Below are positions 36,501-40,589 of a DNA stretch of 64,000 nucleotides, piece after piece. This stretch comes from Yuukianura sp. NJ FZ-2021. Its lineage: Eukaryota. Where the stretch lies: the NCBI GenBank assembly GCA_046563655.1, contig CM102289.1, forward strand, positions 3,224,001 to 3,288,000, given 5' to 3'. The position numbers and the translations under genes are program-made. How positions within the stretch are numbered: position 1 is the stretch's first letter; each line of letters opens with the position of its first letter. The notes below the pieces were generated by a model, which made no database searches, was not told where the DNA came from, and saw nothing but the letters and a program-made list of their open reading frames with translations.

Positions 36501-36977
36501 TCATCCCACTGTTGAAAAGCCTGCCGGGGGAAATTCCCGCGTTCGCGAATTGCTGATTATGTGCCAACACCGCTGACGCAGGCAGGGGCTGGTTCAAGGA
36601 CAATCTGAAAAATGAAAAAGTGAGATTTCATGCTCATCGTCGTATATACGTCGTAAATACGTTGATGTCATCTAAGCCAATTTCTTACTGAATGCTCCTA
36701 TACAGTTCCCGAATTTTACTGACGATAGCAGAGTTGTTGACTTTTACAAGCTCTAGAGCCCTTGCCTGCAATTCATTTTTTCTTCCATTCTTATTTTTGT
36801 TGAAGTGTCCTAGTAGATTTTGCAGTTCCGTAACACGGAACGCCATGACCATATTCTGTAATAGAAAATTTTAGTAATTGAATCACAATCAAAGCGAAAT
36901 AAAACAATTCTTTGTAATTTACGCTCAACCATTCAAATTCCGATTTGAAGTTAATTTACCCGTAATTCCGAATCCAT
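33582..36977 (-). CDS. PIAS: E3 SUMO-protein ligase PIAS / Su(var)2-10 (multi-exon)
   Basis: Micro-exon MDSELR (36977-36960) spliced to SAP domain NMVMAFRVTELQNLLGHFNKNKNGRKNELQARALELV; PINIT-like region (RPLNVT); [30 protein letters not shown]...WSCPVC; SIM-like motifs (ICLDDDD, IIDLT); Ser/Pro-rich tail; last two exons splice in phase to ...GPRYF-stop at 33582. Confidence 0.95.
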
Positions 36978-37006
36978 TCTTTCTGCATACGACTTCCCTC
37001 TAAATA

Positions 37007-39238
37007 CAGTGATAGTTTTATGTTCTGGCCATGCAAATGAGCTTAATCTAAGCCACTCCTCCATGTCTCGGAAAAACTCCCCATCGATGTTGTTTCCCGC
37101 CGAAAGTTTGTTTCGGTTAAGAAGTTAGCGCGGCAAATAAAAGTCAACCGACGCTTTTTCTTTGCTTCTTGGCTATCAGTTTTGCTCTGCTGTTTTCTAG
37201 TAAAAGTTCACTAGTTAAACACTAAATATTATTGAATTAAGTTGCCGTACGACAATTAAAAAGTGATCTGCACGTGAATTGAGCGAGAATAACTTCAATT
37301 AAGGTGAGTGAGCCACTTCTATTGTTTTCTAATTCAGTTATTGGTACTACTGCATTGTGAGAGGGGATTTATGTCGCAAAACGAAAAAAGTTATTTGCTA
37401 ATGGCTACTATTATATTTTGTTTTGGCAGTTAAGGTATGCCTGTCCATTACTCGGAAGAGCAGCGCCTTTGCATAATTAATCTTCGGTTGGAGTACAAAG
37501 ATGAAACCAGTACCGAGCTCATGCACAAATACAATCAAAATCCTATCTCGCAAAATCGACCTATGGAGCATCCAAAAGATGTGAACCGAATTCTTAAACG
37601 ATTCTCTGAACTGGGTAACACTAAAAACCGTCGAAAATCTGGAAGACCAAAAACAGCGACAGACGAAAACTCGGCAATAGGGATTCTTGGGGCTTTTGCG
37701 GCTGATCCTCATATTTCAACCAACCAAGTTGCTCGTGATATGGGTGTTTCGCAAACGTCTGTTATGAAGGTGAAAAATCAGTACAACTGGAAGTCCTACA
37801 AACCTAGAGTCCATCAACTCCTAAAATTTACGGACTATCCTGACAGAGCCTGGTTTGCAAGAATTTGGCTTCCAATGCTAAACGGAATACCTGACTATGC
37901 GAAAAACATCGTCTTCACCGACGAAGCAACTGTAAAACTGGACGGAACTGTTAATCGGCAAAACTATAGATACTGCTCGGATACGAATCCGCATTGGAAT
38001 GTCCCAGGTTAGACTTTTAAAAAAAGGTGACTTAAAAAGGAATAGTTGTGTTTTGCAAAAAAAATCCCCTCCATAACTAATTAGTGAAAACTATGGTGGG
38101 GTATTGATGCCATGATTTTTTTTTCTTCTGATTTTAGTTAAAACTCAATCGGCCGGAAAAGTGAACCTGTGGGTTGGTCTTTTTGGTGACGAGGTGATTG
38201 GACCAATATATTTCAACGGGAATTTGACGGGACAAATGTACCTGACCATGCTACAACAACAAATTGTGCCTGCAATTTTGGCTTCAGCAACACGTCAAAA
38301 CATTCCACATGCTGACATCATTTACCAACAGGACGGTTGTGGGCCGCATTTTTCATTAATTGTACGAAACTACCTAGATCAGACTTTTCCCCAAAGGTGG
38401 ATTGGACGTGCCGGTTGGTTTCATTGGCCAGCTCGTAGCCCAGATTTTTCGCCACTTGATTATTTTGCGTTTGGGACAATGAGAGGGAATATTTTTTTAC
38501 CGCCAAGACCTGCCACTGCGTTGGACTTAATGCGACGAATTGACGATTTTTTCATGTGCACGTTACGCCTGAAAAACTCAGAAATGTAAGAGACGATTTC
38601 CGTAAACGTTTACAACTTTGTCTTCAGGAAAATGGGAGTCATTTCGAACATTTAAAATAATGTGCTTGCTACCCCTCCATATTCTGCATATTTTTTTCCA
38701 TTTCCATGTGTTTCTTGGTCAAATGTCAATGTAAAGCCGATTACTGTTGTTTACAATTTGTTATTTTAAGGCAATAAATTCACCTTTACACTATCCGTAA
38801 AGCTTAATTAATAATTAATATTTCAAAACTAATGTTTTAATACAACTTCTGGTAGGCGCAACACTCCACTGAATCTAACTTTCCGACAGAATGAACGAGT
38901 ATTTGGGTTGGGGTAAGGTGTAGTGGCCGTCACTGTATCCGCAGAGTGTAAGCATCCGTGATTTTTAGTGGCTACAACGGCTGGTGGCTACTCGGTGGCT
39001 ACTCTACGTCAACTTACGTAGCCGCTTTATGTTTGGCAAAAGGGGTAAAATTTCAGTTGCCACAGCCCTTATTGTAGTGACTAAAACAGCGGGATGCCTA
39101 CACTGTGCGGTTCCAATGACGGTCGTTGATCCTTACGGTGACCAGTATTTCCGAACCGAGAGGGGGTTTTGTTCCGAGAAATGGAGGAGTGGCTGAGATT
39201 AAGCTCATTTGCATGGCCAGAACATAAAACTATCACTG
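37007..39238 (+). mobile_element. Tc1/mariner superfamily DNA transposon, DD41D (rosa/Visitor) type, 2232 bp
   Basis: 67-bp TIRs (37007-37073 and 39172-39238, 2 mismatches) starting CAGTGATAGTTTTATG; TA at 37005-37006 and 39239-39240; internal transposase. Confidence 0.96.
37437..38660 (+). pseudogene. DD41D transposase, intron-containing, with one frameshift near the C-terminus
   Basis: Exon 37437-38007, GT-AG intron 38008-38137, exon from 38138. Motifs GRPK, VFTDEA, QQDGCGPH, WPARSPDFSPLDY with 41 residues between second and third Asp. The expected C-terminus VTPEKLRNVRDDFRKRLQLCLQENGSHFEHLK-stop lies in another frame after ~38555. Confidence 0.88.
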
Positions 39239-40589
39239 TACGGTTGGATAAAGCTACTGAATCGCCACCTAGAATGTCTTCACTTGTTCGTATGAAACGT
39301 TACGAATTTCTAGCAGGCCGAGCTCCCGATTATCGTTCCGCCACAATACAAGAGACAGCTACAGTAGTGTTACTGACCCTGTGAGATAAAGCATCTTCGG
39401 TTTAATTTAAATACAATCGGCTTATTTTTTCTCCATCCATTCCCTCCCAGGTCCCACTGTTCTGCGCAAGCGCATAATCTTCAGCGTTAACATTATCCAC
39501 TATTCCGTATGTGTATGTGACACTGCTCCATGTTCCAAGAATACTAAACGTAAATAGCAATAACAAGGATAACGAAACAACTTACGCTTTGTCGTCAGTA
39601 CTCGCTGGCGGGACTGACGATGAGTTGAGTCGATGATTGGAAAATGGGACCAAAATACCCCTAGTCCGCCTCGGTCCCGTCTAACTTCAGGTATACTGTG
39701 TCTCTGCAGTGACTTGTAAACGTACGCCGTGGTCGTATGTAAACTTTGCAAATTCGTCCAGCAGACCGCCGCGATGATCGACAGTGATGGTTGAATTTAT
39801 TTTTATTTAAATTTTAATGTCTGCTGCTGGCGAAGGAACGGTGGGTTCGTTACTGAAAAAATATTCCATCACCTCTTTTTTGCATTATGGCAGTGGCGGG
39901 AGGGGACTACGTGACTCACGAATCGTGAGCTTTACGTTTCTATATCTTTGTATACTCTTTGCCTTATATCATGTATATAACGGCGGTGAAGTCTAATATA
40001 ACCTATAAGATTCGTTGGTATAGGGCGGTTGAATTTAGGCATACCGATGACATGTACCCATACCAAGCGGGGTCTGTCTAATGGGCGTAGTACAAAATTG
40101 TCAATCAAATAAAGTACACTGCTTCTATATGCGACCGATATACCGCATACGGAAGGAGTCCTGTTGAAATGAACCAAACGGAACTCGTTGTATCCACGAC
40201 GTGTACCATGCAGTGCAGTATATCCATTACCGTTTGACTCCGAAACGCTTTCGTACTTCTGCAGCTTCTCGGCGTCGCTCCCGGTAGGATGAGAATGATC
40301 TCGCAGAAAGAAGTCCAGTTCTTTGAAGAAATGCTTGGGAGGTACGTACCATCACAGAGATCAACCCAAGGTCATATTATTGACCCTGCATTTTCATGGC
40401 TGTAGGAGTAATGTTGGCTTTATTTTGATGTATTATTTATACTCGACGATTAATTTTTAACTTTATACCAGTAAAACCTAAAAATGACTCACGCAGACGC
40501 ACCGTTGTTCAAAGATATCAAAAATGTAAAAAATCAAAATATCAAAAATCAAAATACTATGTGTAAACGTTTCCGAAATTCACGGTTTT

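Follow-up and report, generated by a model that had tools for sequence, protein, structure and literature searches.

The DD41D transposons of the rosa/Visitor (VS) type, exemplified by Crmar2 of Ceratitis rosa, Apismar4 of aphids and the VS elements of bees and vertebrates, are the described systems with which the element presented here is best compared. According to PMC5490172, aphid rosa elements measure ~1.3 kb and have ends of 27–32 nucleotides (nt), and the members of a DD40D/DD41D clade of aphids with long terminal inverted repeats (TIRs) exceed 2.2–2.3 kb, with ends of > 460 nt; for the DD41D/VS elements of bees, PMC8472432 gives a range of 1024–2258 bp. On the host side, Su(var)2-10 of Drosophila links target recognition by PIWI-interacting RNAs (piRNAs) to chromatin silencing, which was the background invoked in a first-pass annotation of the DNA analysed here and which agrees with the title of bioRxiv 10.1101/533091. 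This DNA is a 64-kb stretch of contig CM102289.1 in the genome assembly of Yuukianura sp. NJ FZ-2021, hereafter the window, to whose positions all coordinates refer. It carries a complete Tc1/mariner-type element of DD41D type just ahead of the start codon of a gene for a PIAS protein. The reading favoured on balance, with real room for others, is that of a recent germline insertion in the leader region of an arthropod PIAS gene, i.e. an unfixed allele for which no function is demonstrated.

The element occupies 2232 bp (37007..39238); its low-coordinate end is called the left end below, and its transposase gene lies on the plus strand, head-to-head with PIAS on the minus strand. It is flanked by two copies of the target dinucleotide TA (37005..37006 and 39239..39240), visible in the sequence itself and confirmed by contigs that carry a single TA at the empty site. 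The left junction (37000–37015) reads CTAAA-TA-CAGTGATAG and the right junction (39230–39247) reads CTATCACTG-TA-CGGTTGG; read over a longer distance, they are TCCCTCTAAA-TA-CAGTGATAGTTTTATG and CATAAAACTATCACTG-TA-CGGTTGGATA, respectively. A repeat search returned two arms (37005–37085 and 39160–39240), each of 81 nt including the TA and 93% complementary to each other. In an ungapped comparison of the left (37007..37085, plus strand) and right (39160..39238, minus strand) TIRs of 79 nt, the outer 43 nt are identical and 73/79 positions match overall, with divergence beyond the arms. The window contains exactly two occurrences of the 28-nt terminal word, against an expectation of zero from 100 shuffles, and the element is present there as a single copy. 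Membership in the Tc1/mariner group is supported by the TA duplication on both sides, reduced to a single TA at the empty site in 4/4 sequencing runs, and by inverted repeats enclosing one plus-strand transposase gene; the element is integrated at TA by cut-and-paste. The first-pass annotation had described an element that starts at 37007, is bounded by a TA duplication and stands 29 nt ahead of the PIAS ATG (36977, minus strand), and inspection of the sequence and the repeat search both bear this out. Within the element, a 22-nt inverted repeat of 86% complementarity (37361–37382 and 38050–38071) has one arm in the candidate leader intron and the other in the coding intron of the transposase gene, and may be due to chance.

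Five public DNA runs contain part of this stretch, four of them from one sample and one from a second. Evidence on the status of the insertion comes from four of these runs (X1–X3 and X4; two samples from two studies), whose contigs were compared with the window over 34300–41100. In 4/4 runs, contigs join position 37004 directly to 39239 and thereby skip 2234 nt, namely the element plus one TA. The sequence at this joint is CTAAATACGGTTGG, with a single TA, exactly the empty site that had been predicted and proposed for genotyping. In X3, a single contig of 7495 nt spans 34300–41100 through the joint; the bridging contig of X1 differs from the window flanks at 10/1061 and 1/204 positions, and the flanks of the joint in X4 are ~3–4.5% different. 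Because the empty site is found in 4/4 runs from two samples and two studies, the insertion is not fixed; nearly identical haplotypes lack it, and it represents an allele that is unfixed or private. Among the contigs listed, none was found to bridge a filled junction, from which absence of the filled allele cannot be claimed, contigs being prone to drop rare variants.

The same runs contain further copies of the element. Element contigs of X1 show 0 differences over 37153–37550 and 37807–38427, an element contig of X3 shows 0 differences over 37020–37413, and another X3 contig (37807–38801) shows one substitution and one gap. Loose contig ends at 37002 and 39241 run into unrelated sequence, and these therefore represent element copies at other sites. 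After position 38546, all depth in 4/4 runs carries an additional T that the window lacks and that restores the long transposase reading frame. The element family is thus young and has open-frame members, and the earlier claim of a young element finds its support in these identical or nearly identical copies. It does not find it in the arms: the description of the TIRs as near-identical stands for the outer 43 nt and for the overall count given above, but the six arm mismatches are common to other copies (contigs with 0–2 differences over the arms). Mismatches between the arms are accordingly family features, and their use as a measure of insertion age was rejected. Internally deleted derivatives were also encountered. 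One of them, found in 4/4 runs, has 36 unrelated letters in place of the sequence between 37912 and 38758; others join 37438 to 38346 (X1 and X2), 37531 to 38488 (X4) and 37424 to 37663 (X3). Non-autonomous offspring of the element family are common.

The transposase gene comprises two coding exons on the plus strand. Exon 1 (37437..38007), whose open frame starts at the ATG at 37437, encodes a helix-turn-helix region, indicated by weak Pfam matches below the cut-offs, and the first catalytic D (in TDEAT), and is colinear with homologues; exon 2 (38138..38660), delimited by its open frame, by homologues and by the anchor that Mos1 provides, encodes the second and third catalytic D (in QQDG and PLDYF). 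The 130 nt between them (38008..38137), with boundaries CAG:GTTAGA ... GATTTTAG: (colons mark splice boundaries here and below), form an intron in the coding sequence, the two exon ends abutting when compared with homologues. The stretch from NPH to K-x-N-x-W, read across this interruption, counts 11 residues as in the closest homologue, and the interruption is taken as an intron on that ground; no residues are missing relative to homologues, and a disabling insertion was rejected as its explanation. The intron stretch is present without differences in other genomic copies in the run contigs. A further intron may lie in the 5′ leader of the transposase gene (37304..37429, AAG:GTGAGT ... TTTTGGCAG:), as suggested by its splice-like signals.

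The window copy itself does not encode the whole protein. Its T-run at 38547–38552 is one T short, so that the frame shifts 38 codons before the end; the conserved transposase C-terminus resumes in another frame (38553–38657) and is followed by a stop codon at 38658–38660. A read-through with X at the frame break has 364 amino acids (aa), with D162, D256 and D298 at spacings of 93 and 41, while the copy as it stands yields 340 aa without the conserved C-terminus and thus lacks the uninterrupted transposase frame of an autonomous element. This frameshift had escaped the earlier description. The missing T is either a genuine defect or a homopolymer assembly error; in the former case the transposase would be devoid of its C-terminus, and mobility of the window copy would need the help of intact copies.

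Assignment of the protein relies on several searches. The exon 2 query, run against 1.84 billion representative proteins, returned 8321 relatives (E ≤ 1e-3), the closest full-length one being ~51% identical over the catalytic half covered by that query; a search with exon 1 for longer proteins gave only three distant ones (38–39% identity). The window pieces span the full length of nine homologues (353–387 aa) in the same order. Against the PDB, the alignment profile matches Mos1 (3hos_A, E 3.8e-19) and Sleeping Beauty (E 2.6e-18), which establishes homology to the DDE/D transposases of the mariner/Tc1 type, and the Mos1 alignment puts the three catalytic residues at TDEAT, QQDG and PLDYF. A Pfam scan of the transposase gave sub-threshold helix-turn-helix matches only and no catalytic-domain family; no catalytic-domain family was returned for five close homologues either. 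In a count by motif among the best 150 of the 8321 relatives, the spacing between the second and third D is 41 in 84, 14 show 38–45 and 52 are unscorable; 44 of the 65 full-length relatives in this set have a spacing of 41. The D-41-D spacing noted in the first-pass annotation is thus recovered as D256/D298 of the read-through, anchored by Mos1. Judged from its predicted protein, the element has a D-41-D triad with D as third residue and is of DD41D type, a label based on the D spacing and the Mos1 anchor and not on a tree with named rosa/Visitor references.

Comparison with known systems brings out a mixed architecture. With Mos1 mariner (DD34D, 3HOS), the transposase shares the fold family and catalytic residues that align over the full length, but in Mos1 the interval from the second to the third D is seven residues shorter. 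The Mos1 gene is not known to have an intron. Transposase genes with a spliceosomal intron in the coding sequence include those of Minos and Tc3, which are DD34E-type and belong to other families. With the rosa/VS elements the likeness is closer, since it extends to the TA duplication, the inverted ends, a single transposase of ~360 aa, an N-terminal helix-turn-helix and a spacing of 41 ending in D, and the nearest relatives of this transposase display that spacing as well. The length of 2232 bp falls within the range given for bee VS elements in PMC8472432. It departs from the aphid rosa elements as described in PMC5490172 in being 2232 bp long, in its 79-nt ends and long untranslated regions, and in having one coding intron and perhaps one leader intron; it is not rosa sensu stricto (27–32-nt ends, ~1.3 kb). 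Conversely, the DD41D signature and a length of > 2.2 kb are shared with the aphid elements of the long-TIR kind (LTIR-like DD40D/DD41D; Apismar5 and Lsra), whose ends are > 460 nt in the same source as opposed to 79 nt here. In summary, the element fits the DD41D signature, and its structure matches neither the rosa nor the long-TIR extreme.

The gene on the other side of the insertion is, by its predicted domains, a canonical PIAS gene. It displays the SAP, PINIT and SP-RING domains of PIAS/Siz proteins in this order on successive minus-strand exons: part of the SAP-domain exon at 36700..36855 (PF02037, E 2.7e-07) and the PINIT and SP-RING (zf-MIZ) exons at 35309..36188 (PF14324, E 1.3e-23; PF02891, E 9.4e-22). 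The first coding exon is a micro-exon (36960..36977) that encodes MDSELR and ends on a GTAAAT donor; an intron of 104 nt separates it from the SAP exon, which starts at 36855. A search with the SAP exon found only two short read-through gene calls from other organisms (P0151 and P0152), both of which keep the micro-exon, and three related loci (L001–L003) have the same six-codon micro-exon, GT donor and SAP exon. The pattern MD-x-(E/D)-L-R followed by a GT donor is conserved in all five, which makes the PIAS start codon credible. This ATG (36977–36975, minus strand) is separated from the element by 29 nt (36978–37006). An out-of-frame ATG (36986–36988, minus strand) precedes the PIAS start by 11 nt; it has the same spacing in L002 (~2989–2991) and is absent in L001 and L003. 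The next gene upstream of PIAS, again on the minus strand, encodes a TXNDC17-like thioredoxin (40593..41039; PF06110, E 5e-29). Without the element, ~1.35 kb would accommodate the 3′ end of the TXNDC17-like gene together with the PIAS promoter and leader.

How the insertion bears on PIAS depends on the leader. On the minus strand, TTTAG (37004–37000) directly adjoins the TA, in keeping with the earlier remark that the element lies 5 nt from a possible acceptor. In the relatives L001–L003, a donor ACG:GTA(A/G)GT and an acceptor TTGCAG: located ~50–60 nt before the ATG (~35 nt in L003) suggest that a leader intron follows a short exon without coding sequence. In the window, the 1160 nt of minus strand at 39241–40400 contain a sole GTAAGT (39585) and a sole TCAGT[CT] (39617), 32 nt apart, TCAGT being the arthropod initiator consensus. 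Of the three candidate AGs close to the insertion, the one in TTTAG is preceded by the sequence richest in pyrimidines, which make up 14 of the 22 nt ahead of this AG without the element and 12 with it. On these signals, the likeliest arrangement is a PIAS gene whose first exon, near 39600, is short and non-coding (candidate 39586..39615, minus strand, set by the initiator-like TCAGTC at 39617 and the GTAAGT donor at 39585) and whose leader intron has its 3′ end at the AG at 37001–37000, with 36978..36999 as the putative untranslated part of the micro-exon. The element would then interrupt the final 5 nt of the pyrimidine tract, at a distance of 5 nt from the acceptor, and would lengthen the leader intron from ~352 to ~2586 nt; the roles of pyrimidine tract and branch region would fall to the left end of the element. 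Splicing of PIAS transcripts over this distance may still occur, if perhaps with reduced efficiency, and the allele would be tolerated or mildly harmful.

Several points weigh against this account of a recent insertion in the PIAS leader. The transcription start, leader exon and acceptor of PIAS are guesses from sequence signals, and the initiator-like and donor-like words each occur at about chance frequency in 1160 nt. Alignment of the window with L001–L003 gave no usable similarity upstream of ~15 nt before the ATG, and since these upstream regions do not align, the leader intron of the relatives is not transferable by homology. Immediately upstream of the insertion point are two further AGs, TTCTAG and TTCAG; should splicing use one of these, or should a leader intron be lacking altogether, the mature 5′ untranslated region would contain the element. 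In addition, the filled allele is supported by the assembly alone, the samples with the empty site possibly belong to another population or species than the assembly, and the 34300–35584 part of PIAS is ~8% different between the runs and the window.

The uncertain acceptor leaves an alternative that is possible although clearly less favoured, namely that the element lies in a transcribed exon of the 5′ untranslated region, or between the core promoter and the ATG, and damages this PIAS allele. The leader would then contain 2.2 kb of antisense transposon with upstream ATGs, or the promoter would be displaced by 2.2 kb, and the outcome would be a hypomorphic or null allele at low frequency. The distance of only 29 nt from insertion to ATG speaks for such damage, as do the availability of TTCTAG and TTCAG as acceptors upstream of the insertion point and the 33 ATGs on the minus strand of the element, a likely crippling addition ahead of the start codon; the empty form in both other samples is what is expected of a harmful allele. 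Yet the lead-ins of TTCTAG and TTCAG are purine-rich, the leader intron of L001–L003 ends shortly before the ATG, and the assembled individual tolerated the precise insertion. Doubt could also be directed at the filled junction itself, which might result from faulty assembly or reflect an insertion that is somatic or rare and was caught by chance, the germline locus being empty. The empty site in 4/4 runs, the lack of a filled-junction contig among those listed and a homopolymer length difference of the kind typical of long-read assemblies could be read in this way, but mis-assembly does not yield a precise TA duplication around a complete element together with an exact single-TA empty site, and rare variants dropped by contigs deprive the missing filled contig of its force. 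This explanation is considered very unlikely.

A different kind of proposal assigns a role to the element, whose left end would give PIAS an outward promoter, a branch point or a regulatory input, with feedback on PIAS through small RNAs. The head-to-head arrangement lends it some appeal, as PIAS read-through would carry antisense transposase sequence, and so does the Drosophila PIAS orthologue, which ties piRNA target recognition to chromatin silencing according to bioRxiv 10.1101/533091. That silencing role is known from Drosophila only and not from this lineage, and the absence of the allele from 2/2 other samples speaks against an established function; co-option is accordingly given hardly any weight. 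The slimmest chance of all is attributed to its most specific form, in which the filled allele, with 2.2 kb of antisense transposase in the pre-mRNA, is a natural hypomorph or a small-RNA-sensitive allele of PIAS. If this were true, the level of a silencing factor would be coupled to the activity of the transposon family that it is expected to help repress, in a self-reinforcing or self-limiting loop; the feedback idea is possible but improbable.

Sequence differences within PIAS form a separate pattern. Over 34300–35584, which covers the C-terminal exon and the 3′ end of the gene, differences of ~8% are seen in 4/4 runs (e.g. 77/907 and 100/1285), as compared with ~1% in X1 over 35944–37004. 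In the reading frame at 34409–35050, synonymous third-position changes make up 22/28 of the listed differences, and at some places of 34300–35584 a lower-depth component of X1 also agrees with the window. It appears that PIAS contains the boundary between two haplotypes of deep divergence, or that of an introgressed segment.

Elsewhere in the window, three tandem paralogues with intron-less frames of ~292–295 aa occupy 41777–46320 on the minus strand (41777–42664, 43574–44452 and 45406–46320), the third being split into two frames; the Pfam scan gave no family for the two of the three that were scanned. Two divergent, opposite frames of ~135 aa with a similar C-terminal pattern (31344–31763, minus strand, and 32400–32801, plus strand) likewise gave no family in Pfam. 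Exons at 28266–30302 on the plus strand encode immunoglobulin-type domains, in a pattern that we take to be that of insect Dpr-type proteins.

The insertion is a standard Tc1/mariner cut-and-paste event, and nothing so far points to a new mechanism. Its value is mainly descriptive: it documents, in an arthropod, a DD41D-type lineage that is still active or was so until very recently, whose transposase gene has an intron and which includes both intact copies and deleted derivatives. It also provides a pair of natural alleles, filled and empty, in the leader of a gene whose Drosophila counterpart ties piRNA targeting to heterochromatin.

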